From a virus (lineage: Duplodnaviria; Caudoviricetes), in the IMG/VR virus record IMGVR_UViG_3300046170_000320, positions 1,934-65,933 of that record: a stretch of 64,000 nt of DNA, one strand, 5' to 3'. Position 1 is the stretch's first letter. Every line of letters starts with the position of its first letter. A program made the translations under genes and the position numbers. The notes under the pieces were generated by a model that saw only the letters and a list, made by a program, of their open reading frames with translations, was not told the origin of the DNA and made no database searches. Shown here piece after piece: positions 16,315 to 62,959 of this stretch.

Positions 16315-16755
16315 CTATCTGTTTTTATCTTTGTTCACATTATAAATAGCTTTAGTCATAACCTTGTCAGTGTATGTCTCGCCATTAATTATTTTATTTC
16401 GTCTACCTGTGTTTATATCTTCTTCGCCTAGCATTATTCTGTATATTCTACTTATAAGCTGCTTGCCTTTAAAAGACACTTTATATATATGGTATTTTTG
16501 AGTGGTTCTGTTTCTATGTCTCCAGACTTTAATCCAGTCCTGCTTTAGCAGCCTGTTCCATCTTCGGTTATCCCAGCTGTAAGAATAAACACCCATCTCA
16601 AAGTCTTTCTTAGTGAAAAACTCCATACAATCAAGGTATATAAGAAGTTCTAGATCTGCATCATTTAAATCATTATTACGACAGGCCCATTTTCTTATAA
16701 TGCGATAGTGTTTCAAGAGGTTTAGTTCTCTAATGTCACTAGCGGCTAATCTCAT
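16315..16755 (-). CDS. Winged-helix (MarR-like) protein
   Basis: LNDADLELLIYL...RLLKQDWIKVW...YKVSFKGKQLI resembles a wHTH wing. Confidence 0.5.
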   Translation of the reverse strand: MRLAASDIRELNLLKHYRIIRKWACRNNDLNDADLELLIYLDCMEFFTKKDFEMGVYSYSWDNRRWNRLLKQDWIKVWRHRNRTTQKYHIYKVSFKGKQLISRIYRIMLGEEDINTGRRNKIINGETYTDKVMTKAIYNVNKDKNR

Positions 16756-17015
16756 AATACAACGACTATGTCACCTGATTTTATAACGTGATAAGATTCT
16801 TTATCAACTTCTATTTTGTGGCCAGCGTGACGATCAAAGTATATTACATCATTTGGTTTAACACCTGCTACTTCGTCTCCTGCAGAAACTACTGTAGCTT
16901 GAATATAACGTATATCGTCTCTTTGGCTTTCAGCAAGTAAGAGACCACCAGTTGTTTTGGTAGTCCCTTCTTTTGCTTTATTTATTATTAAGTTTCTACC
17001 TATTGCTTTCATCAA
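16752..17015 (-). CDS. groES: Co-chaperonin GroES
   Basis: TTGGLLL mobile loop, VVSAGDEV, VKPNDVIYF; adjacent to groEL. Confidence 0.85.
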   Translation of the reverse strand: MMKAIGRNLIINKAKEGTTKTTGGLLLAESQRDDIRYIQATVVSAGDEVAGVKPNDVIYFDRHAGHKIEVDKESYHVIKSGDIVVVL

Positions 17016-18553
17016 TTCTTAAATTATTAATTACACAATCAGTAGATAATATTGTTGTTGCTACAGAAGCTGCATTTTGAAGAGCGCTCTTGGTGACTAG
17101 TAGTGGATCTATAATACCCGACTTAATCATATTTACCATTTTTCCTGTAACCACATTATAGCCTTGTCCTTTTCTTGTTGGTGTTTCAACATCTTGAACA
17201 CCTGCGTTTTCAAGTATAGTTTCAAAAGGAGCTTTAATAGCATCTAGCAAAACTGTTTCACCTATTGACTTAGCTGTTATATTTGTTGCAGCGTTTAATA
17301 GAGCAATACCACCACCAGGAACAATCCCTTCTTTGATAGCAGCTTTAGTAGCACAGATAGCATCTTCGACTCCTATCTGTTTTTTCTTTTAATTCTATTT
17401 CTGAATTAGCACCGACTTTTACTATTGCTATTTTAGCAGATAGCATGGCTAATCTTTTTTCAAGCTTTATAAGCTTATTAGGATTTTTTTCACTAGAAAG
17501 CTTAGATTTAATTTCATCTATAACCTCTATAACCTGTTGTGGTGATTCTTCTACTTGAAGTATCGTGTCCTCGTGTGATGTAACACTTTTAACGCAACCA
17601 CCTAAATGCTCAGGCTGTATCATTTCCATGTCATCGCCTAAGTCTTCATTTATAATAGTAGCACCAGTAAGCAGTGAAAGGTCTTGTAGCATCTGTTGTT
17701 TATTAATTCCATAAGTTGGAGCATCAATAACATTTACTTTAATGTTGCCTTTCATTTTATTCATAGCTAGAGCGGATAAAACACCTTGTTCTAAATCGCC
17801 TATAATAAGCAAAGGTTTGTTGTTTTTTATTACGTACTCTAGCACAGATTGAATCTGTCTTATTGTATCAACTGGTGATTCTAGTAAAAGTACTAGTGGA
17901 TTTTCTAGTTCAGCAGTTTTAGTTGCTTGGTTGGTTACAAAGTGTGAGTTCTTAAGACCTTTGTCGTATTGAACGCCATCAACAACTTCTACATGTGTTT
18001 TACCATCAGAAGCTGTTTCCATCATAACTACACCTGTGTTATCTACAGATCTAAATGCATCTGCAATAATCTCGCCAAGCACAGGATCATTGTTTGTAGA
18101 TATCGTAGCTATTTGATCTATCATACTACCTTTTACATCTACTGTTAATGACTTTAGGTATTTAACTGTTTTTTCAACAGCTGAATTAATACCGTCTTTT
18201 AACTCTCTTGAGTTTGTTTTATCAGCTACTTTATAAGCCTCGAGCAGTATAGCATGTGCTAGTACTGTGGCTGTTGTAGTTCCATCACCTGCTTCTTGTA
18301 CAGTTTTGCGGGCCGCCTCTTTTAAAAGCGTTGCACCCATGTTTTCTACTGGGTCTCGCAGTATTATTGAATCTGCAACTGTTACACCATCTTTGGTTAT
18401 GATTGGTCTTCCAGTGTGATCTTCTAACATAACGCATTTGCCGCTAGCTCCAAGAGTGGAACTAACAGCTTGCGTTAGTTTTTCAATTCCTTTAAATACA
18501 TTAACTCTAGCGTCCTCGCCGAAGTTAAGGTTTTTGACTATTGCGTCTGACAT
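16996..18553 (-). CDS. groEL: Chaperonin GroEL (one indel near 17370)
   Basis: [61 protein letters not shown]. Confidence 0.95.
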
Positions 18554-26580: not shown

Positions 26581-28831
26581 ATGTCAACTAAATCTTATAC
26601 ACTACTAAAAATATCACTTAGAGTTTACAAAACTCACTGGCTTGAACTTACTGATGAGCAAAAGTCTGAAGTGTTAGATATATACTATGATTTCTATTAA
26701 AATAATATAAATATGCAACATAGAAATATACCATACGAATATCGTGAGTGGACTTACGAAGGCACTAAATGTTCTGCCTTTACATGCAAGTACTTTAACT
26801 TTCACCCTTATCACATTATGTCTTTTTCTACAGAACTAGAACAAGATATGATCGCTCAGATCGATGAGTACATAGATAACCGTGAAGTATACAAAGCAAA
26901 GCGTGATATGTCTACTAAAGCAGCAGCGGACTTCTATAAAACATTAACTTTTAAAAATGATTAACTATGCAGTTTATACAAATAACTAACAATAAAGAGA
27001 TCGATATGACTTCTCTTATACTAAAACAAATACAAGGCGAGATCACACGCGATGAAGTCTTACAAGTAATAAATGATAATATAGTAAAAAATTCAGATGA
27101 GATATAATATAATATATTGGAGTAATGGCTCCTATGAACCAGAGATAATAGATGAAGCGGAAAATAGAGTAGAAGCTCTAAATCTTGTAAAAGAATACAG
27201 GATCGCTTTTAAGTGTAACAATATAAGTTTTCAAAGAATATGAAAGAAAATATAATTAAAACCATAATAATAGTAGGTGCATGTGCTACTTCCTACACAA
27301 TAAGTAATAATATAGCGCAAGAGATCGCTGCATCATCATTCGAGGCAGGTAAAGAAGCTAAATACAATGAGATCAAGCAAAGAGCTGAAGACATTAATCA
27401 ATACGGCGAAGGTTATTTCACATCACAAGATGTTGAAGAGATCTTAGAAGGTTATTATGATGATGAAGAAGGTCTCTAAATGCAAGTAATGATAGTCAAT
27501 GGTACAAGATACCTTATCAACACATCGACGCCTGATGGCGGGGATTCTGCCTGCGAGTACATATTAAAGTATTATGACCTCAATGCGATCATAGAATTTG
27601 ATAGTGCAAAAGCAGATGATTACAAACAAAATACAATAACTATTGGATAATATAATAAACAAAACTATGCAACAAATAAAATTCTTATCAAACAATCAAA
27701 TATTACTTAATAACCAACTCTATCAAGGTTATAATATCGGCGAGTTACCAAACACCTTTGGTTTTATATACAATGAAGACAAAGATCAAGACGGTATTAG
27801 CGAATGGTTTAACTACAAAGGTCTTACTTATGTCGCCAAGTAATATGAAAGAGCTGCTAATCTATGCAGAGCAGCAGAAGAAACTACGTGCAAGCGAGCA
27901 TAGGCGTAAGCACGCACATGACGGGTTATGCAGTGGACTTACAGATGTCGAGTACAATCGAGTTGTAACTAGACAGAAATCTACCTTTTCGAAAGGCTAG
28001 AAAGTTCACTCACAACCGTATGTGGCGAGATAATACAAAGAAATTTACAGTAGAACAACTTAAATTAATTAAAACACTATGACAAATTATCAAAAAGAGC
28101 AATTTCTGCTCGAAGAACAGTATGTAAAACGTCTACTTATCGATTACGGAATCAGAGAAGTAACAACACAGCGTCAAGCTAAAAATGAAACTCGTGAGTT
28201 TGAATTTCCTGTGCCTGCATATACTAAACAAAGACTTGAGTGGTATAAGCGCAAGAAATATGAATTTAAAGACTTACCACGACTACGCATTGCTTGTTTC
28301 AAAGTCAGGTTATGTACGTAAGCAAAACGGTGCAGACAGAGCATATCAACTAAATCCTACATACGAGCAAAATTATAGATGCGTATGGCAGAGACAAGAT
28401 GGTGAGATTTATATATCAAAAGGTATGACTAAAGCTCGTGCGCTTATACTTTCACCAATAACAAGATTAAACTTTATGTTAAACTATTACCTTAAAAACT
28501 ATGCAAACAATTAAACTAACAGAAAACGACTGCATTTTCGTACACTATGTACTACGCATGTACGCTCAGCAAACACCTGGGCTTGATCAAGAAGACAAAG
28601 AAGAAATACGTGAAGTCGCAGCTAAATTTAAATAATATGAGTAAAATGAAAGAAATAGATCTTATAGCGCAAGGCGTTGCAGATCACTGTAAAGAAATAA
28701 TGTATGACACTGTCGAGTGGCAGATATCAGATCAACCTGTTGACGGTGATGATTTTAACGAGTTACATAGTTATGTAATGAGTAAAGCAATCGAATACCT
28801 TTACAAACAAAATACAAACACTGTTGGATAA
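26581..28831 (+). CDS. Run of small early hypothetical genes (e.g. 26581-26700, 26713-26964, 27240-27479, 27668-27843, 28079-28514 with indel, 28501-28635, 28637-28831)
   Basis: Abutting short ORFs with A-rich leaders; no recognisable domains. Confidence 0.5.
27621..27652 (+). promoter_or_regulatory. Class I motif, copy 4
   Basis: Exact boxes; upstream of ATG 27668. Confidence 0.8.
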
Positions 28832-28833
28832 TA
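28802..28833 (+). promoter_or_regulatory. Class I motif, copy 5
   Basis: Exact boxes; overlaps the end of the upstream ORF; upstream of ATG 28861. Confidence 0.8.
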
Positions 28834-28860
28834 TATATGTAACAAATAAAATAAATAACT

Positions 28861-29049
28861 ATGTATTGTAGATGTGGTACAACCGTCCACCCTGTCCGTT
28901 TAGAACTGGGATATAAAACTTGTGTGAAGTGTTCAACAACTAAAACATACTCGTATGTCCCTATCATTGAGCACAAGACGGGCAATACAATACAAATCGT
29001 CAGCCAAGAAGTTAGCGCATCTGTGCACAGAGCTTGGCGGCGTAAATGA
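28861..29049 (+). CDS. Small C4 zinc-finger protein (TraR/DksA finger-like)
   Basis: CRCG...HPVRLELGYKTCVKCS. Confidence 0.6.
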   Translation: MYCRCGTTVHPVRLELGYKTCVKCSTTKTYSYVPIIEHKTGNTIQIVSQEVSASVHRAWRRK

Positions 29050-29077
29050 TGGAAGCACCGTAATGGTCCATCAAATA

Positions 29078-29191
29078 GCTACAAGTTAGTATCGAGTAGT
29101 AATGCGAGTGAGAATGCAAGTGAACTGGTGAGGGATCGTTATGAACTCAGGAATCTAAAAACACTCAATAGTTATTACCCTAGCTTGTAGC
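29078..29191 (+). ncRNA. Rod-like structured RNA candidate
   Basis: 12-bp closing stem gctacaagttag/ctagcttgtagc, then gtagtaat/gttattac, gagtg/cactc, tgag/ctca; G-U pairs favour the + strand. Confidence 0.55.
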
Positions 29192-29195
29192 ATAT

Positions 29196-29268
29196 GGGCG
29201 TGTAAATGGTTAGGGGTTCTGCTTTGTGCATTACCTAAACGCAGGTTCGATTCCTGCCACGTCCACTA
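29196..29268 (+). ncRNA. tRNA-like RNA resembling the tmRNA tRNA-like domain
   Basis: Acceptor GGGCGTG/CACGTCC-A with G3-U70; T arm GCAGG-TTCGATT-CCTGC; no D stem; no canonical anticodon arm. Confidence 0.7.
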
Positions 29269-29270
29269 AT

Positions 29271-29358
29271 AGAGAGATGGCAGATATGCAGTTCATGGCT
29301 TGTCCAACACAAAACGCGGGTAATCCGTAATCGAAGTGCTTCGTGGACACATCTCTCT
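29271..29358 (+). ncRNA. Multibranch structured RNA candidate
   Basis: agagagatg/catctctct, tgtcca/tggaca, inner gcgg/ccgt and cgaa/ttcg hairpins. Confidence 0.55.
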
Positions 29359-29389
29359 TATAATATTACTAATTTTAAAACAAGAACAA

Positions 29390-30804
29390 ATGCCAAATAT
29401 GAGTTATTGTCGGTTTGAAAACACCGTCACAGACATGCAAGATTGTGTAAATGCAATCGAAGAAAGAGACACAGATGAGCTCAGCAGCTATGAAGTCAAC
29501 GCTCTTTCACACTTTTTAGATCTCGCAAGAGAAATTACTAACCTCGAATATGAAATCGAAGAAATACTAGGTGAATATGACAGCTAAAGTTAGACAAATG
29601 ACAAGTAATAGCTCAGGTAATCCTGTAGCTAATCAATTCGTTATATACACTGACGAAGGAACTTACTTCCAAAGCTATGACAGCGTTATTGCTTTTAGAG
29701 ATAATAATCGTAAAATTATACTAGATAGTTACTATTGGGATTACTCACGTACTACAGGTAAATACCGCAACCAGTTTTTAGGTGAAGGTATAGCAGATAC
29801 TAGAGCTAAAATAGAATCAGGTGAGTATAAACTAGCTGATCTTCAGTAGTTACAAACAAAATACGAACACTAACGGATAATAATATAAAATAATTATGCA
29901 AAATAGACTAAATTTATGGCAAAGGCTAAAGCCTGAGTACAAAAAACAACTTAAAAAATCAAACAAGAAGTATTCTTACAAAATGGCTAGTATTAAAGAT
30001 GAACTTAAAAACACATATTGGTTTACAGATGTAAAATATGGTACTGCTTTTGATGTAATGACGCCTAACAAGCTAGACTTTCTTGGTGATGCTTTTAATG
30101 CAAATAAAAGTTATGAGTGAAGAAATAAAAGAACGAGCTAGACATAAGGCTTTTGCTAAAATTAGCTTTATAGAACTAGAAAACAAGACTTATAAACGAG
30201 ATATTAAAGCAGGTGGCGACGGTAGATTATCAGTTGATCTACTAAAAACCTGTTTAAGATCTAACGAAAGAGAATTACTAACATGGCAATACATTGCTAA
30301 ACTAATAGAAACAGATGAGTAAAACACTGAACAGACGAATTAATAGAACAAACACTAGCTGATAAAGGTTGGCTAGATGTTAATGAAGCTGATCAAGAAG
30401 ATCAAAAGAAAATGGTACTTGAGCACTATGACGTAGAATTTACAGATAGATTTAATAATAACTGCCAATACTATATATACACAGAGTCAACTAGAGATGG
30501 TTACGAGGTATGGGTTGCTACTGAAGACATGGGTAATGTATGTATATCAGAAGATGTATACTACTACGACAGTGATCTTCATGTTGCACTAGCTGATGCT
30601 ATCAAAGACGAGTTATCACCTATTTACTTAGATGATGAAGATGCTGACTTTGTTGATTATGCTATATCAGAAGTATACGAGTATTTATATGATCGTAAAC
30701 TAGAAGAAGTTGAGTCAGAGCTTGAAGATCAAGGCTATGAGTGGCCTGTTATTGAGTCAGAAAAAGACTTTGCTAACGAAGTAAATAATATATTAGATTC
30801 ATAA
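29390..30804 (+). CDS. Early hypothetical genes (29390-29587 MPNMSYCRFENT-type, 29571-29849, 29896-30120, about 30113-30322, acidic ORF ending 30804)
   Basis: Contiguous ORFs; start of the first reassigned to 29390 because 29336 lies within an RNA fold. Confidence 0.55.
29851..29882 (+). promoter_or_regulatory. Class I motif, copy 6
   Basis: Exact boxes; upstream of ATG 29896. Confidence 0.8.
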
Positions 30805-30810
30805 TACTAA

Positions 30811-31089
30811 ATGACAAACAAAGAAATAGACAAACTAGCAGAGTTAATTGCAGATAAATTAATTGCTAAACAAAAAGAATATGACGAGCAGTTCCATATA
30901 GATCTGCAGGAAACAATAAGCGATAAGCTTGGTAATGTTAGGCACGTAAGTGAAGAAGAACTTTTACTTGCAGAACTTGCTAGGCTTATGACGCTATTGT
31001 CATCATATGAGAAATCAGAGCAGTTCGAAAAAGCTGCTGTAATACACGGAAAAATTAAACACATAGAAGAAAAACTAAATAACTTATGA
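30811..31089 (+). CDS. UVR (UvrB/UvrC) motif protein
   Basis: C-terminal EQFEKAAVIHGKI. Confidence 0.5.
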   Translation: MTNKEIDKLAELIADKLIAKQKEYDEQFHIDLQETISDKLGNVRHVSEEELLLAELARLMTLLSSYEKSEQFEKAAVIHGKIKHIEEKLNNL

Positions 31090-46188: not shown

Positions 46189-49100
46189 TTATTTTTTTAA
46201 CTCTAGCATCTTCATAACGCAATGCTTTAATTTGTTTTTTATCAAGACCTAAATCTAATAGCATTTGTACTTGATCAGATGTTTTAGTATCTTTTTTCAT
46301 TGTATCAAACTCACGTTGTTTAATCTCTTCAGGTGTTGGATCTTTAGGTTTGTCCCAACCTCCATAGTAAGGTAAGCCAATGTCATAAGTACCCCAACCT
46401 AAGCCTAATGCAACTTTTTGCCAAGTCTCTGTTTGATTACTTAATAAACCTCTAACGTTGTTTGCTTTCTTAACAACACGATCAACAGGCACGTTTGTAA
46501 AAGCAGATATAATCTGAGCACCTGCTAAATAAGCTGGGTTGTCAAGGCTAAAGCCTTTTTCTTTCATTTCTTTTCTATTCCAGCTAAAGCTTTTTAATCC
46601 GCCTACTAGTTTTCTATATTTAGAATTAAGTGGTGGTGAAAATCCTAGAGCTTCAACTGATGCAGCTTCATACTCAGGTGTTTTCTTACCGTGCTCATCG
46701 TATAGTTTAACTATCATATTTTTAAGAGCTGAAACTGCTGTACCTGCAACACCTAAACCTTTAAGCTGTGAGTCAAGCATACCGTTTGCAACTCTAGCTA
46801 TTTTCTTATCAGCACGTGCTTTTTTCTTAGCATCTTCTTCTTCGTCTTCGCTATCACCAAATCCTATAGCAAATAAAGCTTGCTGCAGCGCGTTGAATAT
46901 TAAATTCTGTACAAAACCATAATAAGCTATTTTAGACACATGAGTTCTCCAGTCGCCGCGACCTGCAATAAGATCTTGTGCAGATCTTTTTTGTATTCTA
47001 GCATACTGCATCGGAGTATTTGCCCAAGCAAGTATTACACGACCTGCGGCTGATGCCTGCTGCATACTAATTTTAGACGGATCACTTGACTGCTGGTTTT
47101 CTTCAGCTAATGCTCTAAAGTCATCAAATGCTTTTTCTTCTGCAAGCTTTTGATCCATACCTTCTTTAATATACTTTTTTATTCTATTTCTATAAAACGT
47201 AGCACCGCCTGAAGCAATAGCAAAACTGTCAGCAAACCTTGTCATAACAAAACCCTTGCTAAGTAAGAAAGCAATAGCAGCTCTTGGTTTGTTTTTAGAA
47301 TCTTTTACTGCATCTGCTATTTCAGATTCACTTACATTAATTTTAAGACCGTTACGGCGTTGTGTTAAATAATCAGAGTTCATAAGCGACATAAAGTCTT
47401 TCCAGTATTGTTTCTGATTTGCAAACGCTTTACCTGCAGCTACAATATTATTATCACCCCAATTTATAAAGTTTACAGCAGAGATGGTCTGTAGCAATGC
47501 AGATCTTGTATTTAAGAACATTACAGCACCGACAGAGTTGTTTAGCCAGTCGAATATCTTTTCTGTTACAGGGTTGCTTCCTATTGGTCTATTAGTACCA
47601 GCTTTCATACGACGTATGCTATCTTCCATAGCTCGACGCCATCTTGTACCGTAAGCAGCTTCCATTTTATTTAAGTTCTCAGGTGAGAATATAATATCTA
47701 AGTTCTCTCTAAACTCTTGCTGAGCTTCTGCTCTACTGACCTTGTTTATACCACCAATAATATCTGTAGTTAAGTTACCACCTAACCAGTCTTTACTAGG
47801 TTCAGGATATAACTTACCTTTTTGTATTGATATTAATTGATCTGCAAACGCTTGTAATTTAGGGTCGTTCTTAATAAAGGCATTTAGCTTTCTAATGTCT
47901 GCTTTTGATAATCCAGGTATTGACATACCTTGTTGCGTCCATATGTAAGTTCTAATAGCATGCTGATATGTAAAACCACCAATACCAGTTTCTTTTCTAA
48001 ATGTTTTAGGTAAACCTGGAAATTGCTGTTTAAGTGCCATAAAGTCATTAGCTGCTGCCATTTTAGCTTGAACAACAGTGTCTTCGGCTTTCATATACGG
48101 ATCTAACAAATTTGTTTTAAGAAAAGCCATTTGAGCATCACCCTTTCTTTCCTTTGCCTAGCATCTTGTACAATAGACCTGTAAAGTCTTCTGCCGATGC
48201 AGGTATTAAGAAATTATACTTACCTTTGCTAGCACCGACTGTTTTAGCCTTTTGCAGCTGAAAACTGCTTGTATGTTTCAATTCCAGAGGAATCAAATAT
48301 CATATCATTGACTATAGTGTCAAATGTTTGCTTTTTACTAGCTCTAGCTTGTTGCACTCTTGATTTAACATCTATTTGATCTAAAACTTCTTTAACAGCT
48401 TTAACGTTTTTACTAGCATCATCTGCAAAGTAAAAGTCGTTATAACCTTCAGCTGCTTTACCAGCTATCCATCTACCTTTAGCCGCAGCTGTGCCATCGC
48501 CTAAACCTGTTATATTGCCTAAAGGTATATCAATACCCAGCGCTTTCATAAAAGCCTTTATAGGACCAGCCGCTGCTTGTGGTCTTGCTGTTAATATAAA
48601 CAAGTCTTCTGTACCACGAGTATCTGCTATTTTTTTAGCAACATTAAATAGTGGTCCTTTCTTGCCATCAATCACTTGCTCGAACTGACTAAAATCAAAT
48701 GTAGCGCCTTGGGCTTCAAGATCTGCCGCTTGCTCAGCAAACTGTGTAGCATTTATTTCTTTAGTGCCGCCTGGAACTTCTTTTAAAACCTCTGCTTTTT
48801 GAGAATCAGTAAGACTATTGAAATTTTGTTTATAGCTAGGTAGGTTTTCAAATTCTTTTTTAAACTTTCTTCTAGCTACAATATCAAGCATATCTTTATC
48901 TATGCTAGATATAGGCATATTAACGATAACTTTGCTATTAGATCTAGCTAGCGTGTCATCAAAATCAAATACTCTTATTTTTCTAACAGGTTTGTCTATT
49001 TTTCTACCTTCATTTAAAGCTTGATCAAGATTGCTTAATTCACCTACTATGTCTTGATTTGTTTTTTGTTTTTGACTAGCTCTAGCGTAACCTAGAGGTC

Positions 49101-52100
49101 CAGGCATCATTTCTGTGTTTTGCTTCTTAGCTCCTTGATAAGTTGATTTATTATTGATCATGTTTTTGACAATAATACCTTCAGGACTTAAACTCGCATC
49201 TGAAGCAGTGGAAATTATTTTAGCTTGTTTTTCGCTAAGTTCTTGAGCTATAAATTCAGCTAAATTTGTACCTGTAAAAATTCTACCTGATGGTAATCTT
49301 CGTATTCCAATAGGTATTTGAAACTGAGCATCTTTGCCTAAAAAAGTTAAAGGATTTGCAAAACTTCTGACAGACGCACCATCTGCATCTTTTTCTACTC
49401 TCATTCTTTCTGAGATAACAGCTTGCTCTAGACTAGCAGCGTTAACTTTAGCGTCAAATATAGCTTTTTCTTTAGTTATTTCACCTTTTCTAAACTTATT
49501 TAATATATTTAAAAAATTCTTATTAGCGTTAAAAAGCTCTACTAAATGCTCATTATGCATTCTTTTATTTTCAGTTTTACCTTTAGTAGTACCTTTTTCT
49601 GGTTTTATGCTAAAACTAGTAACAGGTATTAAACCCTTAAATATACCAGTTGCTCTATTTACTTGAGATTCTAATATATCTATTATTGTTGCAAAATTTT
49701 CGCTAGTAGGATCAGCTGCAAACATGTTTATTAAAGAAACATAAGTGTCAGAAACCGCTCTTTGATTCGCAATTAAAACATCATCAATATTTGTTTCTTT
49801 ATCTGGAGTTAAAAGATCTTCTACTTTAGCTCGTGTTTCGTCTAAAGTTATATCACCATTATTATATGAATCAGCTATTTTTTCAACCTTACCTCTAAAT
49901 CCTTTTTGACCCCAGTTTCTTGGAGCAAAAACATTTTCACTGCTCCCTAACTTAGTTCCAACACCTTTTAAAACATCGGCTCCAAAAGCAGCTGTTAATA
50001 ACTTACTATAGCCATCGCTAGATTTTAAACCATATGCTTTGTATGTCAATGGCTTTCCTCCTATTGTTATTCTAGTATCGCCAAAACCTACAGTATCTAT
50101 AATAGCTTGCTGCATAGACTTTGGTAAATCAGAAAAACTTTTACCTTTAGGTATCATGCCTTTGATTAAAGAAGTATAACCTTTTTTAAGTTTAGCTGCG
50201 TTAGCTACAGATGATATTTCATTTTTGCCTCCAACTCTAACATTAAATTTGCTTCTTAATTCTTTATATCTTTTTTCATTTGTAAAAAGATAATCAACAG
50301 CGTCCGTAAAATCAACACCTAGAGTTTTTGCTGTATCTTCAATAAAATTTATTTCAGCTTCAATAGCATCTGCATCGAGATTTCCAGATAAAGTTTTTTC
50401 TAAAAACTTCTTAGCTCCTTTGTTTTCTACTTCATTTACAGCTTCTTTTATTATTTTATTACTAAACCTAGCGCCTGTTCTTGTTCTAGCTACAGGATCT
50501 GGTACAGCTTGCTCAAATATCAAGTTTCTAAGAGATAAGTTAGCCAAGCCTTTTAATGCTTGAGCGTCACCTGATCTATACACAGCATCCTTACCTTTAG
50601 CTTTTTTAGCTTCAGGATTTAAAGCGTCAATTATATTTTTATAATCTTTTAAACCTTTTCTAGTGTCTCTTACGTATTTGTCTTTAGAGTTTTTAGTAAA
50701 TAAGGCTTCTAATATTTTACCAGGTATAGAAGTTGATTTACCTTCTATGTTTGCAGCTTCTGCCAGCATCGCAAAGTCAGCCTCTGCGTTTATATTTAAA
50801 AATTGTTGTAAAGCCGTAACAGCGCCTGACACAACATCGCCTTTCATTATATTTTGATTCTTCTTAGAAAACCTATTAGCTTTCAAGCCAGTAGCTTTTT
50901 CCATTAAAGCAGCAACCGCAGGTCCTATGTCTTTAATGTCTTTAAACTCTTTTATTTCACCCTTGTAAAAGTTAGCAATGTCATCTGCAATGGCCTCTTC
51001 AAACAACGCGTCTACCTCAGCCTTTGTGCTAACACCTAAATTACTTAATATTGTACTAGGATACTTCCTAGACGCCTTAGGAGTTGTTCTAGCTCTTGCT
51101 TTTTGCTTCGTAGTGGTTGTTTTTTTACTAGCAATTTGTCTAGCCTCCGAGCCGCTTGTACTTTCAGTTACAAATTTATTTGGATCAAGACCTGCTGCTG
51201 TATATATTTCAGCTGCTCTTACTCCTAACCTTCCTAGAAAAGTACTAACCTCACCTTTATCTTCGGCATATTCTTCCGCTAGTGATTTTTTTCTACCTTT
51301 AAAAGTTATATCAACCATACCAGGCGTCATCATGTCTGTCACGGCTTGAAGTATGTCATTTGAATCAACACCACTTTGCTGCGCTACATCAGGATTAAAC
51401 TTTAATAAATCTAATATTAAACCAGAGTTTTCTTCAACAATCGTAGTTGCAGCACCAATGTCTCCCTCGACAATGTTCTGCATTAACTTCTTGTTTCTTG
51501 TAGCCTTTTCAGATAGTCTAGCTTCACCTTGTTCAGTAACTTCAGTTCCTTTTATAGTTCCTGTTTTTGCAGCTACATCTGCACCTTTACCACTCTTAAT
51601 TGCTTTATTATATCCTTTAACAAAGTCTAAAGCACTTCTACCAGTTCTAAAGCTAATATTTAATTTACCGCCACTAAATATACTTTTTAATGTTCTGCCA
51701 AAATCTACAAATTTGTCAATTAAAGTAGTGTTTTCTACTATTTGATCATTAGATAAACCTTCACTAGTTAAAGTAAAAACTTCTTCGTAGTACTGCTCTT
51801 CGCTTATATCGCCGTCTCTAAACTGTTTATTAGCTTGATTAAGTCTATTTGCTACTACAGCATCTAGTTCTATGCCATCACTATTTAATAAAGCTTCTAG
51901 CTTTTTACCAGCTTTTATTTTAGCGGCACTGTTATTTACAAATATTTTATCTAACAAAGCATGTAAAACTTCGTGCTGAGCTGTAGTTGCTACATTATCT
52001 TGTAAAGCAGAAACTTCGTTTAATATAACTTGAGTAGTTCCATCACCCATTCTAGATATAAAACCATAACTTTGGTCTTCGGCAGGCAATATATTTCCTT

Positions 52101-54456
52101 TTTCATCTCTATCTAAACCTACAACTTCACCTCCATTAGCTTCAATTGCTTCAACAGATGATATAAGATCTTCTGTACCTTTAACAATTTCAAGTCCAAC
52201 ACCTTTAAGACCTTCAGCGAAAGCTTCAGCGCCTTTAATGTTTTTTAAAGTTCGATCTTGCGTAACTAAACTGTTTAATTCTGCGTCTATTTCTTTAAGT
52301 CTAGCAGACTCTGCTTTTGTTAAACTAGAGTTATCAACTTCCTTTATTTTATTTTTAAGATTTTTTTGTTCTATTAACAGGTCAGCAAACTCTGTTTTAT
52401 TAGTAGTAACCTCTAGGGCATTTAAAACATTGGAAGCACCTTGTACATTTCTAGCTTTTTCTTTTATAGAATTAGCTTGGGCTTCTGTTATGTCGCCAGC
52501 GCTTAGCTGTTGATCAACTCTAGCATTAATAGCCTGTAAAGACCCTTTTACTTTTAAAAGATCCATTTGAACAGGCGTTATGCCTTGTGTGCCGTCTCCT
52601 ACGTCTAGACCGTCAAAAGCCTCGTTAATACTAACTAGATTATTTTTAGTTAAAATATTATCTATTTTTCTATTAGTAATACCGCTTTTGACATTGCCAA
52701 CGGCTTGAGATATGTTAACAGGCGAAGTATATAAACCACCACCACCAACTCCAAGTAAGAAAGCATCTGGAACTCCTTCAAAAGGATCTTTACCTTTTAT
52801 TAAGTTTTGAGTTATTTGAGTTGCAACTTCTTCAATACCTTCACCTAATGTACCAGCTATAGCACCATATTTTTTTATAGCTGTTTCGTACATATCTATT
52901 AATCCTTTTTTAAATACTTGAATACCTTTTTCTTTACCTTCTTTAGCTATTATTGTTCTATAGCTTCTACCAATTGAACCTTTACCAACAAAACCAAAAA
53001 CTGTTTCAGCTGCACCTAAACCTAAAGAAGATGTAACTATATCAAACTCCGACATAGCAGGATTTTTTTCACGCATTTCTCTTATTTCAGGACCAGCAAA
53101 ACCAATTGTTCCAGCAGCTATAAACTGACCAGCTTTCATATAACCACCACCTAACATCATAGATATAGATACCGGAGCGCTTTCAGCCAAACCAGTACCC
53201 ATTTGCTTAAAACCTTCAAGATAATTTCCTTTAGCAAAACTATTAGCAATACCTTGTGTTTTGTAGTTTACTTTATCATAAGTTTTATTTATAGCATCTA
53301 ATTTTTCTCCTTCAGCAATGTAATAATTTAGTATTGGATTTGATAAATCACCTAATTCTTCTTTAGCAAATTTATCAGCACTTGCTTCAAATGATTTTGG
53401 TAAAATTCCTATTTTTACTAAAAGATTTTGAGGTAATGATGCTAAACCGTAAATAGAAGAAGGTACGTCTGCCATTATTTCACCAGCACTTACACTTCCT
53501 CTTCTAAGCCCACTTTCAAGTCTACCTAAATATCCCATTTCAGCAACTAGTTTTTCAGCTTCTTTTTGAGCTTCAGCGTCTTCACCTATTTCTTTTTTTA
53601 AGATTTCAACTAGTTTTTTTCTTTTTTCTAGTAAACTATCAAAATATTTTTTACCTTTTTTGCTTTTTATTACAGTTTGATTTTCTACTGTTGTTTTTTC
53701 ATTTTTAAATTCACCAGTTTCTGGATCTGGATATTGAAATAAACTTTTTTCTTTTTTAGTTACTTTTTTAGTTTCAAAATTGTTTAAAGCAGAATCAATT
53801 TCACTTATTTTAATTAATAAATTATCAGCACCTGTAGTTTCTTCAACATTATCAAAAGTTGGAAGACCGGAAACCATTTCTATTTCAGCCTGTTGACCTT
53901 GCACTTGATCCTCGTATTTTTTAAGATTTTTTAGTTGATCCTTGTCAAGATGATTTAATTTTTCAGCTATTTTAGCAGAAGCATAAGTATCTTCTTGAAG
54001 AATAAAATCTTTATCATCTTTAGATTTATAATAATAATCTAATTGACCTTCTGGATTTACTTCAAATTTATATTGATAAGGATCATTCTCAGGATTGTAA
54101 ACCTCGCTTTGTTTAGCTACTGTTTCATATTTTCTTCTAAAATCAAAAGTAGCATCCATGGCTTGCATGCTCATGCCTACTTTAAACTCTCCAAATTTAT
54201 AGTCTTGAAATGGTAATTCTCCATCTCCAGAATCTAAAGGTTCGGATACTTCTGTTTTTTCTGCTGTTACAGTCGTATCCTTCTCCGCAACAGCAGGTTC
54301 CTTTACCTCTTCTTTAGTTTCTTCAGTAGTAGTTTCTTCAACATCTTCTACAGTTTCTTCATCAGGTGTAAAGTTTTTAAGAATTTCTATAATTTGCTCA
54401 ACTTTCAAAGGAGGAAACTGAGACTGAAGTTCTATAGTTTTTTCTTCTAATGTCAT
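46145..54456 (-). CDS. Giant (about 2770 aa) internal/ejection polyvalent protein (indels near 48150 and 48245)
   Basis: 2070-aa and 661-aa ORFs linked by readable intervening sequence; EGIEEVATQ region, HEVLH, HAD motifs FDFDDT/ILTAR/FADD. Confidence 0.7.
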
Positions 54457-57952: not shown

Positions 57953-60900
57953 CTACGTTCCTGGTGTGCAATTTTCTTGACAAGAGCTTATAGTTCCAGA
58001 GCCGACTTGACCAGATGACACCATTTGCTGCCCGAATGAAAAAGTAGTAAATGGGTTATAAGGCGTAACGTCTTCTTGTTCTACAGGATAGCTTTCAAAA
58101 TCACAGTTTCTATTAATTACTGCTGTTTTTTGAGGAAAAGCGTTTGTAACCTGTGCACACAGCTCTTGATATGTTGCTGGTTGGTTTGGGTTAATTGGGG
58201 AATAGTAAGGGAATTGCCCAGCAATCCTCATTCTAGGAAATACAGGAGTTGTAAAAACATCACCGGCTGCATTTGGCACTGTCACCAACCATCTACCACT
58301 TGAAAAACTAATAACATCTCCAACGCTTAAACCGTGAGATTCAAATGTTGTTATTATAGCATCTGTTCCGAAATCATTACTAAAAGGTGGTCCAGCATTT
58401 GTATAATCTACAGAACTTACTCTTACTGTAGGATTATCGTTAGAATCTAATATAATAGAGTTTGGTGCAGTAGAAAAACCGCCAGAAGTTTGGTAAATTT
58501 CATCTCCATTAGCGGGGTTAGAGGTATTTCCATCTGTTGGTTGAACGAATATAGGTCCTCTTGGAACTCCAGCTATAACGTTAGGATCAAAAATACCTGA
58601 TGTTACTCCATTTGGAAAGAAAGCATTGTCACCCAACAAGTTTTCTGTTCTAAAAATATTTCCATCTAAAACTTCGGCCACAGTACAAGTGCCATCTTTA
58701 TAAACATCACCACCAACAGCCAGGTCTCTAGGCGTTATAAAATTCCAACCCCAAGCTTTTTCAACATTAATTCTATTTATTCTTACTATTGCTCTGCAAT
58801 AAGGTTGCTGAGTTTCTAGAGAATCAAAACTTCCGTTAGCATCTATCACTTTCAACCAAATAGCCCAATCCTGAAAATCTTCAAAAGCCAAGCTAGTACC
58901 TCCAGCTGTAGTAACAAAAGAAAAAGACGGTGAGGCTGGGTCAGGTTTTTCTAATGTACAAAAACTAACGCCTGAGTTTATTGAATCGCTAGTGGCTATA
59001 GTGGTATTTAAAGTAAAAGGTCCAGTTTGTCCAATATTTTCAATAGTATAGCCTGTCACAGGATCTGTATATACTTGATCAAAAACGTTTTGCTCACTAA
59101 AAGAGCCTCCAAATTCTTGTAATTGACTTGTACGCAGTTGCGCTATTATTTCAAATTGAAGTTCTTGACCTGCTAAAAATCTTTGTCCAGAAACAGCACC
59201 ATCTTCGTAAAATCTAGAACCATTTTCTGCTTCTATTATATTTATAGCTATAGTTTCTGTTTGTGATATGTCTATATTTGGCGGAGTATTACCATTTTCG
59301 CCATCATAACCAGGCGTGCTAGGACAACTTATAAAAGTAGGTATTTTATTTTTAAGCTCTATATTTTCTATAAAATATGTTACAGATTGTTGTACCGTAT
59401 TTGTTACTTTAATATTTACAACAAAGTTTCTTATAGCGGGATCTTCTAAGAAAACAAATAATTCGTTTGTTTTAATTTGATAAAAACCTGGTGTAGTTGT
59501 TTCTTCTAAAACAAAAGCAGTACTTCTATCAGCTCCCGTTTGGTCTATAATACTAGCTTCTCCTGGTACTTGTGATTCTAATGTTATTTCAAAATCATTA
59601 GGGTCAACATCTGTTCCAAAAATATCTTGAACAGTAAAACCATTACCATTTATTATGGAAGATCCTATGGCTAAATCTTCAAAAAACAAAGCATCATTAA
59701 AATCTATTATTTCAATAGCGCCTAATGTATCACTCAATATAGATGTATTTAAATCAGATATTAAACCGCTAGAAGAAGTTTCCCAAAATATATCTAGCAA
59801 ACTCTCTACTGGTTCTGTTTCATAAACAGCTAAATACTGTATTCCAACTGGATTAGTTTGCGGATTGTCAAAAAACGTAAGCGTAGTTCCTGTTTCAAAT
59901 ATACTTTGTCCCTGTGCTGATCCAACAGAAATAGGACTTCCAGGAGCTGGATTAGCCAGCTTTACAGTAGGAAGCGATGCAACTGCAACAACTGTACCTT
60001 CTGCTAAACCTCCGCCCCTAACAGACATGCCACTTACTATAGTCCCTTGTATGTCAGCCAATGTAACTGTATCTTCTTGTACCACAGGTGGCGTCGTGCC
60101 AGTTTGAGCAGGAGTTTTAGTAGTATCAACAATACCGCTTCCAGTAACAAGATTAGTGCTGTTTATTTGACCTATTTTATTTTCAGTAGTTATTCTAGCT
60201 ATTAAAGGGTTTGAAGTATAAGAGTAAAATTGTGGAAAAAAATCTGGTCTCTCGGAAACCAAAGGGCTAAAATCAAATAAATCATTTAGAGTAGATATAA
60301 CAGAAACAGTATCTGGTTTTATTCCTGGGTAATAAGGTCTATTTTCAGAAAAATTCAAAACAGCAGGATCAACATGGTTTTCTACTCTTCCAAAAATACC
60401 AACTGAACTTCTAAATTGTTTTTGCTGTGGACCAACTTCATTTAAGTCTCTTGGTATCTTATTTATATTATCATTTATAAGAACAGTGTGTGATGTTCTA
60501 CCTAACTCTAGTAAAGCGTCTTTAGGATAAGCAGCCATTACGCCAGGCAGATAAACATTGTAATATTCTTGTTCTGTTTGTTTAACAACTATCTTCCAAG
60601 AGTACCAACCTAAAGGATTATATTTTGAGCTATTTTCATCTCCATTATACAATCCAGGCCAACCAATAGAAGTATTTTTATTGCTAGGTCCAATGGGACT
60701 GTTGAAAGAAACTTTCAAGGAATCACCTGGCCAAGTAGATTGAACTATAGAGCTTGAATTATAAGCAGAGTATATGGTAGACCCCTTAAATTCCACGCCT
60801 CTAGTGGTAACAGTGTTTAAACTATTTGAAAGTATAACGCTTGATTGTCTACCATATCTATCAGAAAGAACCACACCTACTTGATAATTTCTATTTTGTT

Positions 60901-62959
60901 TTACAGAATGGTTTGGGTACTCTATAATACTAGTAGCGTCTTGAGTATTACTAGCTGGCATTAGCTCTATTATATCGCCGTTATTATAATTAACATTATT
61001 AGTCAATGTTAACGTATTAGTGAAAGAGTCATAATCTTTAACAACAGTTCCAGCCGGTATACTTGCATCTTTACTTGTTATAATAGAACCAATTATATTA
61101 CCACTATCCCATATGGTTCCAGATTCAGAACCAGAATTTATAGTTATTTTAGACGGTTCTTTTCCAGTTGGAGGAACTTGAGAATCAGCAGTTCCATTAT
61201 TTACTGAAAATTCAGCCTTAGGACTGGAGCTGACATTGTAATCTAAAAAAGCCGGAGGCGTATGTTTATTTTGAAAATTACCATAAACAACTCTATTGCT
61301 TATTATTTCTTGAGCTAAAGATCTAACTGGAGTTTTATCATACACTCTAATAAGATCTTTTTCTGGTAAAACTTTAAAAGGTTTTCTAGATTGATAATCA
61401 TATATATAAAATCTAGGATTTCCTATTGTTATTATATCACCAGCATTTAAAGTTACATTTTCACTAAGTGTTATATTTCCAGATGTAGGTATAGCTGGAT
61501 TAGTTGGTGAAAAATCAGTTACTGTTATAGCAGAACCAGTGCTACCTTCAAATGTAACTTGAGAGCCAACTAATATACCTCCTTTAATATTTTCAATAGC
61601 AAATGGACCTTGACTTGCTGTTACAGGATTCGTAACTTCGGCTTCACCTGAAGAGTTGAATATAGTTTCTATAGAAACTTGCTCTATAACTTTAACAGCC
61701 GCCTGGTTAGACTCTTTATAAAGAATATCTATAGAGTCAACTTTTAAAGCATTTTGCAAATCATAGTTATTAAATGGAAGTGGTATATAAAGTAATATTT
61801 TATTTACTTTATTTTCCATAAATTCAACTATGGTACTTTGATACGATGCTTTTTGATCATTAATTTCTTTACTCGCGTAAACATTACCAGCAACATTAGG
61901 GGTATCTAAGTCTGTTTTATTTGTAACAAAATAACCATCTTGCTTTGGTATAAAAGCAGGTTGAGTAAAAGGTGAAAATATAGAGTTTTCACCATCAACA
62001 AAATTAAATCTATAACCAAATCTTACGAACCTATCTTCTAAGTAATTAGGATCACCATTATATGATTTTTCAAAATATGGATTTGGCTCAAAAACAATTT
62101 CTAAATCATCACTAACTATTGTTATATCTTTATCTAGTTGTATGTAAGCTGGCGGTGAGACTGAGGTATCAATTTTAGTTACTTTTGTGTCATTTAAAAT
62201 AGTTGATCCAGGAGATGCAGATGACTTTAAAACAGAGTTTATATATATATTTCCAATTATATTAGAAATAGGTACATCTGTTCCAGCTGTGTAAGTTCCG
62301 GTAACGGAGTTAGCAGTACCTCCATTTGGATAAAATTTACTAGTAACATCTAGCATAGTTGTTTCATATTGTTCAGAACTAGATAATAAGCTTTGTCTGT
62401 ACAATAGTATGCTTTGATATGGATTATATGTAGATACAGATATTTGATCTTCTGTTTGATAATAAGAACTAGAACCTAAAGCCGATATTATATTTATTTT
62501 TCTAGGTTGATTTCTATTATCTGTCCAAAATAAAAAGTCTTCTAAAACATTAACACCGTATATAAAATTTGTTTTTGAAAAATTTAAAAAAGCACCTTCA
62601 ACTAACTTATTAGCTACTTTTGATACAGTATTGTAAACATATATAAAGTTAGACGCAGTCGGAGAATATCTGAAGTTAGAAGGTGAAGGATCTGTGTAGT
62701 TTGTTAAAAATAAATATATATTATTATTAATGTCATCAGAAAAATAACCTATACATGTTAAATCGCTGACGTCTTCTAAAGAACCAAAATCTACAGCTAG
62801 AGAATTTCCTAAGACATTTTCTAAAGATCCTACTCCATCTCCTTCTGATCTACTTACTTGAACATTTAAAGCGTCTCTGTAATCACCGTTTCTTAATAAT
62901 CTAGCGTCAATGTCTTTATTCATTTTAGACCCTAGAAAAGTATTTTGAGCTTTAGCCAT
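57953..62959 (-). CDS. Large tail stabilisation/nozzle protein
   Basis: MNKDIDARLL..GDYRDALN, LFWTDNRNQPRKINI, NRVVYGNF, YQVGVVLSDRYGR. Confidence 0.65.
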   Translation of the reverse strand: MAKAQNTFLGSKMNKDIDARLLRNGDYRDALNVQVSRSEGDGVGSLENVLGNSLAVDFGSLEDVSDLTCIGYFSDDINNNIYLFLTNYTDPSPSNFRYSPTASNFIYVYNTVSKVANKLVEGAFLNFSKTNFIYGVNVLEDFLFWTDNRNQPRKINIISALGSSSYYQTEDQISVSTYNPYQSILLYRQSLLSSSEQYETTMLDVTSKFYPNGGTANSVTGTYTAGTDVPISNIIGNIYINSVLKSSASPGSTILNDTKVTKIDTSVSPPAYIQLDKDITIVSDDLEIVFEPNPYFEKSYNGDPNYLEDRFVRFGYRFNFVDGENSIFSPFTQPAFIPKQDGYFVTNKTDLDTPNVAGNVYASKEINDQKASYQSTIVEFMENKVNKILLYIPLPFNNYDLQNALKVDSIDILYKESNQAAVKVIEQVSIETIFNSSGEAEVTNPVTASQGPFAIENIKGGILVGSQVTFEGSTGSAITVTDFSPTNPAIPTSGNITLSENVTLNAGDIITIGNPRFYIYDYQSRKPFKVLPEKDLIRVYDKTPVRSLAQEIISNRVVYGNFQNKHTPPAFLDYNVSSSPKAEFSVNNGTADSQVPPTGKEPSKITINSGSESGTIWDSGNIIGSIITSKDASIPAGTVVKDYDSFTNTLTLTNNVNYNNGDIIELMPASNTQDATSIIEYPNHSVKQNRNYQVGVVLSDRYGRQSSVILSNSLNTVTTRGVEFKGSTIYSAYNSSSIVQSTWPGDSLKVSFNSPIGPSNKNTSIGWPGLYNGDENSSKYNPLGWYSWKIVVKQTEQEYYNVYLPGVMAAYPKDALLELGRTSHTVLINDNINKIPRDLNEVGPQQKQFRSSVGIFGRVENHVDPAVLNFSENRPYYPGIKPDTVSVISTLNDLFDFSPLVSERPDFFPQFYSYTSNPLIARITTENKIGQINSTNLVTGSGIVDTTKTPAQTGTTPPVVQEDTVTLADIQGTIVSGMSVRGGGLAEGTVVAVASLPTVKLANPAPGSPISVGSAQGQSIFETGTTLTFFDNPQTNPVGIQYLAVYETEPVESLLDIFWETSSSGLISDLNTSILSDTLGAIEIIDFNDALFFEDLAIGSSIINGNGFTVQDIFGTDVDPNDFEITLESQVPGEASIIDQTGADRSTAFVLEETTTPGFYQIKTNELFVFLEDPAIRNFVVNIKVTNTVQQSVTYFIENIELKNKIPTFISCPSTPGYDGENGNTPPNIDISQTETIAINIIEAENGSRFYEDGAVSGQRFLAGQELQFEIIAQLRTSQLQEFGGSFSEQNVFDQVYTDPVTGYTIENIGQTGPFTLNTTIATSDSINSGVSFCTLEKPDPASPSFSFVTTAGGTSLAFEDFQDWAIWLKVIDANGSFDSLETQQPYCRAIVRINRINVEKAWGWNFITPRDLAVGGDVYKDGTCTVAEVLDGNIFRTENLLGDNAFFPNGVTSGIFDPNVIAGVPRGPIFVQPTDGNTSNPANGDEIYQTSGGFSTAPNSIILDSNDNPTVRVSSVDYTNAGPPFSNDFGTDAIITTFESHGLSVGDVISFSSGRWLVTVPNAAGDVFTTPVFPRMRIAGQFPYYSPINPNQPATYQELCAQVTNAFPQKTAVINRNCDFESYPVEQEDVTPYNPFTTFSFGQQMVSSGQVGSGTISSCQENCTPGT

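Follow-up and report, generated by a model that had tools for sequence, protein, structure and literature searches.

A small RNA built like the tRNA-like domain of tmRNA, together with its modular relatives, in an uncultivated marine phage lineage

The tRNA-like domain (TLD) of bacterial transfer-messenger RNA (tmRNA) is defined by a small set of features. The wobble pair G3-U70 and the discriminator base A73, which serve as the keys for recognition by alanyl-tRNA synthetase (AlaRS), are reported to be conserved in every ssrA gene; the D loop, which is reduced and devoid of a stem, contacts the T loop, and the protein SmpB binds the elbow (PMC3968760). Processing of tmRNA by RNase P and 3' nucleases is described in several accounts (PMC3968760, PMC4131195, PMC11915505). 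A TLD-only tmRNA has already been published for the mycobacteriophage DS6A, and a DS6A-TLD-like molecule is reported to inhibit tmRNA strongly in E. coli, perhaps by titrating SmpB (PMC4131195; PMC11915505). tmRNAs devoid of a coding sequence are likewise described from organelles, namely jakobid mitochondria (RF02544) and the plastids of Mallomonadaceae, where forms of about 65 bp occur (PMC11915505). In this article, an element of 70 nucleotides (nt) is described that lies at positions 29196..29265 of a 64,000-nt stretch of phage DNA, referred to below as the window, which makes up most of the 65,933-bp IMG/VR virus record IMGVR_UViG_3300046170_000320 (positions 1,934 to 65,933). The element is very probably a real, selected, TLD-like small RNA. 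The copy in the window is of the known TLD-only kind, but belongs to a much larger, modular family.

The DS6A gene offers the closest comparison. Like the element, the TLD-only tmRNA of DS6A is phage-encoded and small (about 80 nt), with a 7-bp acceptor stem, G3-U70 and A73; also common to both are a D loop that contains GG but has no stem, a single hairpin where tmRNA has its body, a T arm, and the lack of a tag frame. Between the two, no sequence relationship is detectable beyond the generic frame. The DS6A gene (28478-28560 of its genome) obtains 43.2 bits on RF00023, the Rfam tmRNA model, which is below the cut-off of 47 bits, and ends in A-CTA; it still resembles the GAC/GGAC helix base of tmRNA (..GTCGAC CGCCG../..CGGCG GCAC), whereas the window copy does not. 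DS6A represents a single actinobacteriophage case, whereas at least 99 distinct variants are present here in marine phages probably infecting Bacteroidota, and unlike DS6A this marine family comprises several acceptor and T-stem lineages (S1 to S4) and a hypervariable, modular arm.

With the TLD of bacterial tmRNA the element shares the acceptor with G3-U70 and A73, the reduced GG-containing D loop and the T arm, and in both RNAs helix H2 leaves between the D loop and the T arm. Unlike bacterial tmRNA, the element has no mRNA-like domain, resume codon or tag frame, its arm being about 32 nt long, and no pseudoknots, a simple hairpin standing where the pseudoknot ring would have no room; its pair 4-69 is C-G, compared with G-C in bacterial tmRNA. 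The organellar forms, for which a function is only presumed, have also kept the TLD and have no tag frame, but they descend vertically, are often circularly permuted and have a known nuclear SmpB partner, whereas the element is viral and unpermuted and has a variable arm; RF02544 is not among the Rfam hits for the window. Canonical tRNA-Ala has G3-U70, A73, the T arm and a similar RF00023 score in common with the element, and it is by architecture that the window's frame type is set apart from tRNA, having no D stem, no 7-nt anticodon loop and no variable loop, and a single helix of free length, which among relatives ranges from absent to more than 115 nt. No description of the marine-phage family, of its alternative frames or of its modular arm was found in the open full-text literature; the 2025 update of the tmRNA database covers, for viruses, RefSeq only, with 79 phage sequences (PMC11915505).

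The element and its relatives

The gene was delimited on the plus strand, from its first base to the discriminator A, on the basis of RF00005 (tRNA), RF00023, a family model and the predicted fold, and belongs to frame type S1. The 5' strand of its acceptor stem, GGGCGTG (29196..29202, G3 at 29198), pairs with the 3' strand CACGTCC (29258..29264), in which the T at 29262 lies opposite G3 and provides G3-U70; this helix is 99.6% paired in 99 distinct relatives. The stemless D-like region TAAATGGTTAG (29203..29213) contains the conserved GG, the unpaired TAAATGG after the acceptor stem constituting a D region without a stem. The central arm (29209..29240), the equivalent of tmRNA helix H2/P2, is an irregular hairpin with a 5-nt loop in the minimum free energy (MFE) structure, and the T arm, GCAGG-TTCGATT-CCTGC (29241..29257), is perfect. 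The discriminator A (29265) is followed by CTA (29266-29268) and not by CCA. An earlier note on this DNA had described the 7-bp acceptor stem, G3-U70, the discriminator A, the A-CTA end, the perfect T arm and the stemless D region, and each of these can be read directly in the sequence.

The MFE fold has an energy of -27.6 kcal/mol (z = -3.4), which one of 200 shuffles equalled, and the element contains 51% G+C in comparison with 35% for the genome. In this fold the central arm is built from the pairs GUU/AAC, an AG bulge, GGGU/ACCU and UGC/GCA; the first of these (GUU/AAC) reach into the final bases of the D-like region, and no linker precedes the T stem. The family consensus agrees with this register. 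The hairpin TTAGG...CCTAA followed by AC, as given in the earlier note, is also readable in the sequence, but it differs from the register supported by the fold and the family, in which the proposed linker disappears. The same note had called the RNA "mini" and devoid of an anticodon arm; the anticodon arm is indeed missing, but a central arm is present, and with its 70 nt the element falls only some 3 nt short of the length of a standard tRNA.

The results from general tRNA tools are marginal. RF00005, with a cut-off of 29 bits, is passed narrowly (32.0 bits, E = 0.009 for the whole window) by an alignment that drops the D stem and places 12 inserted nt in the anticodon loop, and ARAGORN reports 0 tRNA, 0 tmRNA and no tag in the window. 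A cloverleaf with a D stem and a 5-bp anticodon arm carrying a 7-nt loop is not formed by the element. The checks with ARAGORN and Rfam that the earlier note proposed are divided, with ARAGORN negative and RF00023 below its cut-off, but RF00005 above its own.

Relatives of the element were recovered from each half independently. An exact search with the 3' half only returned 89 viral stretches. In the 85 unique elements found upstream of these 3' halves, the 5' half, which had not been searched for, reads GGGCGTG in 83, mostly with the continuation AAATGGTTAG, and GGACGTG or GGATGTG in the remaining two. When only the 5' half was used and position 3 was left free, 35 unique elements with a T arm were obtained, pair 3-70 being G3/U70 in 32, A3-U70 in 2, a parsing error in 1 and G3-C70 in 0. 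A family covariance model built from 34 members produced 107 hits in 100 sources, of which 99 are distinct; the family model R1, run with filters off, finds a single copy in the window at 65.1 bits, the window copy being among the training sequences of the model.

In the alignment of the 99 relatives, 93.7% of the cells pair, compared with 80.2% in shuffles (0 of 500 as high), and slid controls all drop to 32-53%. Both-sided changes are found in 11 of the 17 pairs. Compensatory changes affect four of the five T-stem pairs and all five pairs at the foot of the central arm, counts that lean towards structure because the alignment is fitted to the model. Most members were also obtained from pattern searches that fix one half, so that the near-invariance of the frame is partly built in, and the covariation signal derives from the arm and from minor lineages. 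Pair 3-70 is G-U in 95 relatives, A-U in 2 and G-C in 2, while pair 4-69 is C-G in 90, G-C in 4 and A-U in 2; all 99 relatives have the T loop TTCGAnT, 96 have A73 and 95 retain the D-loop GG. A wobble at 3-70 that is kept while the neighbouring pair 4-69 covaries is the expected signature of selection on an AlaRS identity element, and the covariation across related phages for which the earlier note had called is thus present, together with the conservation of G3-U70.

These data bear on the view that the element is a decayed tRNA-Ala-like pseudogene or an assembly error without function. The marginal RF00005 score, the silence of ARAGORN and an RF00023 score within the range of tRNA-Ala are what such a view would draw on; it is most improbable in light of the 99 distinct relatives with their near-invariant frame, compensatory changes and conserved G-U and GG, and of an identical element in an independent contig. 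Furthermore, no relative has a normal cloverleaf at the scaffold, the finding by which the earlier note expected a decayed tRNA to betray itself, and the genuine tRNAs of the related islands score 59-77 bits.

The distribution of the element was also followed in 17 related viral contigs that had been picked by homology of their ligase protein, without regard to RNA. In most of these a non-coding island is found at the corresponding position or close to it, and 15 of the 17 records carry a TLD element; the two without it are a record only 80% complete, cut at the island, and a complete one. The genes downstream vary between the phages that carry the element, which argues for a trans-acting RNA. 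Against cultured phages, megablast with positions 28000-31000 gave no match, and the matches of sensitive blastn with the element and with S3 were confined to 21-33 nt of generic T-arm sequence, located in tRNA genes or unannotated DNA; the family thus appears to be absent from that cultured-phage collection at the blastn sensitivity used.

Frame lineages and the comparison with tmRNA and tRNA-Ala

Three lineages of the frame possess the same alanine keys. S1, the type in the window, reads GGGCGTG...GCAGG/CCTGC-CACGTCC; S2 reads GGGAGTG...GGCGG/CCGCC-CACTTCC; and S3 reads GGGGGTG...GACAG/CTGTC-CACCTCC. All keep G1-C72, G2-C71, G3-U70 and A73, while pair 4-69 is C-G in S1, A-U in S2 and G-C in S3, and the T stems differ by compensatory changes. 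S3, an RNA of 82 nt found in 8 contigs, reaches 53.1-65.7 bits on RF00023 in an end-to-end alignment over model positions 1-374, in which 304 body positions are replaced by 12 nt, and it shares its acceptor, GGGGGTG/CACCTCC, with 17 of 30 Bacteroidota tmRNAs, among which this acceptor is the commonest. Because S3 passes the tmRNA threshold with a Bacteroidota acceptor, it is a bona fide TLD-only tmRNA of the Bacteroidota type. Its arm is a regular 30-nt hairpin with a GCAA-type cap and occurs in compensatory variants (GTAGTAA/TTACTAC, GTAGTAG/CTACTTC and GTGATAG/CTATTAC). The proposal in the earlier note that the window copy is a mini-tmRNA is supported by these S3 sisters, whose architecture the window's type shares, and by the lack of a tag frame.

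S1 and S3 take each other's place. In the 17 records examined for this purpose, S3 is never found together with S1/S2: all 8 S3 records lack S1/S2, and all 9 S1/S2 records scanned with RF00023 lack S3. In locus L027, S3 occupies precisely the position of the window's element, behind the same structured module, M1 (99% identity over 112 nt), that precedes S1 in the window. Both frames occur intermingled among phages with ligase identities to the window of 80-91%, a ligase 91% identical being found once with S3 (L003) and once with S1 (L004).

A loosened S3 5' motif gives 113 hits in bacterial genomes of many phyla; 36 of these have the normal tmRNA length of 349-441 nt and 76 have no 3' partner according to a crude parser, figures that say nothing on the host or on bacterial mini-tmRNAs. 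In one contig of a Chloroflexota metagenome-assembled genome (L172), a tmRNA-like 5' end is followed 130 nt downstream, by the parser, by a T arm, an acceptor 3' strand and ACCA, a candidate that may represent a short tmRNA or else an artefact of the parser. A further tRNA-like frame, type B, which is absent from the window, ends ...GGTTCGAATCCTCACTAGTTACAAA and has an acceptor-like stem AACTAG/CTAGTT, no G3-U70 and a variable insert; it occurs at about 4080-4168 of L003, at about 190-295 of L007, in L006 and in others.

The A-CTA tail was compared with the ends of neighbouring RNA genes. N-CTA follows the discriminator in 27 of 33 unique tRNAs that ARAGORN finds in related phage loci (L002-L127), and CCA is not encoded in 19 of 30 Bacteroidota tmRNA genes, with two ending in A-CTA. 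The tail is therefore no obstacle, because most tRNAs of these phages and most of the Bacteroidota tmRNA genes compared also lack an encoded CCA; N73-CTA gives the impression of a common context for 3' processing or of a cassette boundary. As a separate observation, 23 of the same 33 tRNAs are tRNA-Met(CAT).

Among long-armed S1 elements, tmRNA is the best-scoring Rfam family within the tRNA clan (9 elements, 34.9-41.2 bits), and S1/S2 elements other than the window copy score 33-41.5 bits on RF00023. ARAGORN calls the 185-nt S1 of locus L030 a tmRNA, with a tag that is surely spurious; a frame ending ...AA* is found in 1 of 96 family arms, which is the chance level.

The explanation favoured here, for and against which the evidence stands about even, is that the element is a functional phage RNA of TLD architecture without an mRNA-like domain that blocks or bypasses tagging. 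Tentatively, and judging from sequence, it may act on the axis formed by AlaRS, SmpB and trans-translation, and within that axis inhibition or tagless action is likely to prevail over normal rescue. The RNA would be transcribed along with the early genes and excised in the manner of a tRNA, with RNase P generating the 5' end, 3' trimming after A73, and the host enzyme adding CCA. It would then be recognized by the host AlaRS through G3-U70 and A73, and bound by host SmpB and EF-Tu. Since the element has neither a resume codon nor a tag frame, trans-translation cannot be completed by it. SmpB might consequently be titrated and tagging by host tmRNA blocked, or stalled ribosomes might be released or occupied, leaving nascent phage proteins unmarked for proteolysis.

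Several observations weigh against this explanation. The window copy aligns end to end with RF00023 but, at 34.4 bits, does not attain the gathering score, and in a 101-genome control Bacteroidota tRNA-Ala genes reach 31-43 bits on the same model, many at 76-nt loci, of which 4 of 4 checked are tRNA-Ala (one 91-nt locus is tRNA-Ser). Earlier, narrower controls had given 13.9 bits for one phage tRNA-Met and at most 25.5 for the tRNAs of 4 genomes; the idea that 34 bits on RF00023 makes the element more tmRNA-like than tRNAs is rejected by the tRNA-Ala scores. As these overlap the window copy, the score alone does not distinguish it from a tRNA-Ala-like RNA, and the assignment of the window copy, below the cut-off and within the tRNA-Ala range, rests on architecture, synteny and family context. 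Its 5' 20 nt have a median identity of 15/20 to tmRNA 5' ends, no better than to tRNA-Ala (13-16/20), the GAC...GGAC helix-base motif kept by host tmRNAs and S3 is missing, and neither descent of S1 from tmRNA nor descent from tRNA is favoured by the sequences. Two S1 variants have A3-U70. A paralogue, S4, AGGCGTG...CACGCCT-T, with A1-U72, U73 and, in 2 of 3 copies, G3-C70, is always found beside S1, in three contigs (minus strand; L092:2376-2466, L109:12695-12788, L115:105-198); it has the D and T loops of S1, and by its sequence it cannot have alanine identity. Genes for SmpB, AlaRS and a CCA enzyme were not found among 90 open reading frames (ORFs) of the window. Lastly, the hypervariable, internally covarying arm with its conserved modules, described below, suggests a function in the cargo instead of, or besides, the scaffold, and together this modular slot and the non-alanine S4 complicate a pure decoy reading. 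Of the interpretation put forward in the earlier note, the mini-tmRNA part is supported, while the tRNA-Ala-like score, S4 and the arm modules weigh on the other side.

The central arm as a slot for structured modules

The central arm is the most variable part of the family. In the model-aligned set its length extends from 0 to 115 nt, and whole elements measure 40-185 nt, the shortest being one of 40 nt without an arm (L087) and one of 47 nt (L047). The arm of the window, about 32 nt, is among the shortest, and four variants of the frame, in nine loci, carry identical arms. Inner hairpins of the arms form compensatory series, such as AGC/GCT, GGC/GCC and GGC/GCT in L064/L043/L046, and CAACACA/TGTGTTG versus CAACATA/TATGTTG in L099 and L063. 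The arms consist of discrete recurring modules, often 100% identical, that are found in S1 arms, in S2 arms, nested within one another, and free-standing in the islands.

Two such modules flank the element in the window. M1 (29078..29190, plus strand) is a free-standing structured module closed by GCTACAAG.../...CTTGTAGC that folds as an independent domain, consisting of an outer shell in which a 33-nt core (29121-29153) is nested. Each of the two, shell and core, also turns up without the other at 97-100% identity, in 33 hits from 25 loci, as S1 or S2 arms or free; M1 forms the arm of L114, its shell can enclose other cores, and L008 (S1) and L015 (S2) have its 33-nt core at the centre of their arms. 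M3 (29271..29361, plus strand), 91 nt closed by AGAGAGATG/CATCTCTCT, was delimited by its fold and by comparison with L003, against which it forms an insertion; a repeated ACTAAT marks its bounds, and homologues of 89-93% occur in L002/L019 and L006/L086. A contig from an RNA library joins 29264 to 29368 without M3, which, by these sequences, behaves like a movable cassette. No Rfam family was found for M1, M3 or other modules, whether in 29100-29400 at E <= 10 or in 12 small island loci at E <= 0.1.

On these grounds it can be asked whether the RNA is a natural scaffold of the tRNA type whose arm modules, as aptamers, decoys or antisense sequences directed at host or defence factors, constitute the actual agent. 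The frame would then provide for folding, stability and maturation through RNase P and 3' nucleases, and G3-U70 would be inherited, or protective through charging and EF-Tu. This reading, the main rival, is considered rather unlikely. It is consistent with element sizes that change from 40 to 185 nt between close relatives around a nearly invariant frame, with arms that covary internally, with a 33-nt core 97-100% identical in S1 arms, S2 arms and free form, with modules nested in modules, and with an S4 that has the same D and T loops without alanine identity. Against it stand the armless members (L087, L047) and the short arm of the window, where the frame is kept without cargo, and S3, whose arm is fixed at 30 nt and free of cargo and which nonetheless substitutes for S1 on a one-to-one basis; G3-U70 is retained in 95 of 99 relatives while the adjacent pair covaries, which a mere scaffold would not need, and no module matched Rfam at E <= 0.1. 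Engineered tRNA scaffolds, in which a structured RNA takes the place of the anticodon arm and the frame lends processing and stability, resemble the element in this respect, but they are man-made and based on a full tRNA with a D arm, whereas the element is natural and has no D stem, so that the likeness is a functional analogy only.

In the favoured explanation, the central arm would be a tolerant slot into and out of which conserved hairpin modules are swapped. The shortest family members imply that the scaffold alone is a viable unit, and the armless members, together with the cargo-free S3, argue for a function of the frame itself; the S4 paralogue and the conserved modules indicate that the frame is not the whole story, and the frame and cargo readings may both hold. 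A wider proposal, which is doubtful, combines them: a fast-evolving system of alanine-identity TLD scaffolds in phages probably infecting Flavobacteriia, with the arm as a plug-in slot that draws on a shared library of modules. The frame would then lead the RNA to AlaRS, SmpB, EF-Tu and an empty A site, or would give it stability and abundance, and the swapped modules would add a second, variable activity. In a bolder form of this proposal, a charged TLD without a template might add alanine repeatedly to stalled chains while the mRNA channel is empty, which would amount to a phage-controlled, template-free addition of alanine at C-termini.

Genomic setting and significance

The phage is lytic by appearance, with a genome of about 35% G+C. 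The minus strand of the window encodes structural, lysis and chaperonin genes, and a plus-strand block extends from about 26 kb to 44 kb, opening with many small ORFs of no known family and containing later an ATP-dependent DNA ligase, an Erf-like annealing protein, an exonuclease and a T7-type primase/helicase, as well as thymidylate synthase, MazG and ribonucleotide reductase. The closest cultured relative of the primase/helicase is that of Cellulophaga phage phi10:1 (41.6% identity), followed by those of Tenacibaculum, Riemerella and Flavobacterium phages, and by this homology the host is likely a member of the Bacteroidota (Flavobacteriia).

The element lies in the early region, within an ORF-free gap of 340 nt between an ORF ending at 29049 and one starting at 29390; across 29090-29335, no ORF of at least 40 aa overlaps on either strand. 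The upstream bound of this island is a small plus-strand ORF of 62 aa and no family (28861..29049), whose end ...AWRRK* is conserved in relatives. Downstream, a plus-strand ORF of 65 aa (MPNMSYCRFENT..., 29390..29587), also of no family, serves as a synteny anchor; it was found by ORF search and has tblastn matches in 12 distinct related contigs at 51-100% identity. A scan for sigma-70 promoters and terminators remained at the level of shuffles (24 versus 24.3 expected and 2 versus 1.8), with a consensus that may not fit Bacteroidota. In contigs from four public RNA runs, which convey neither ends, strand nor level, 29084-29215 is covered little or not at all. RNA-library contigs hold relatives of the element's region, among them one of 1990 nt in which the 3' end of S3 abuts the downstream ORF; for these contigs carry-over of DNA is possible.

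The position of the element, 5 nt after M1 and 5 nt before M3 in a same-strand run of early genes, would suit a processing signal at which RNase P and 3' nucleases cut an early polycistronic transcript, freeing M1 and M3 and splitting the mRNAs, and genuine tRNAs with the same C-TA trailer lie in the same island. Such a punctuating role is nevertheless improbable, as the element is retained where the neighbouring modules differ or are missing and where other genes follow, the genuine tRNAs of the island could do the same job, and the retention of G3-U70, A73 and the GG of the D loop would go unexplained. The early location and the rapid turnover of variants among close relatives, as in an arms race, would also fit a bait for host defences that sense or cut tRNA- or tmRNA-like RNA, including tRNA nucleases, immunity linked to RNase R, or a factor recruited by tmRNA, and tRNA and tmRNA fragments are reported in an anti-CRISPR complex (PMC11662646). 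The element, however, offers no anticodon loop to anticodon nucleases, no defence or anti-defence gene is linked to it among the 90 ORFs, and this analysis contains no specific support for a bait, which is considered very unlikely.

The scan of the 90 window ORFs also returned no integrase and no tRNA-processing enzyme. An attP or integration site was rejected as an identity for the element, as an integrase is missing, both acceptor halves are present, and the S1 3' half matches 0 of 30 Bacteroidota tmRNA 3' ends. With regard to other genes of the minus strand, the chaperonin genes comprise a GroES-like Cpn10 ORF (16752-17015) and a GroEL-like sequence split across ORFs 17345-18553 and 16996-17250, a split that may reflect a frameshift, an error of sequencing or a genuine interruption. 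Two very large ORFs are located on the same strand, one of 2070 aa (48244-54456) with no PHROG or Pfam match and one of 1668 aa (57953-62959) whose only match, at the N-terminus, is to a family of virion structural proteins. A DNA polymerase was not recognized among the window ORFs scanned, the first 1933 bases of the record lying outside the window.

TLD-only tmRNAs have so far been curiosities, known from one mycobacteriophage and a few organelles. Here, an uncultivated marine phage lineage almost always carries a TLD RNA (15 of 17 relatives), in interchangeable versions, and the clear signs of selection on the alanine identity pair make the manipulation of ribosome rescue by phages a general and testable idea. 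About 100 natural variants are available to define what a minimal RNA competent for SmpB and AlaRS must keep. The modular arms and the free-standing modules represent a new set of conserved, unexplained phage RNA motifs, and the scaffold with its modules provides a natural counterpart of the engineered tRNA scaffold, of relevance to trans-translation, tRNA mimicry and phage small RNAs.

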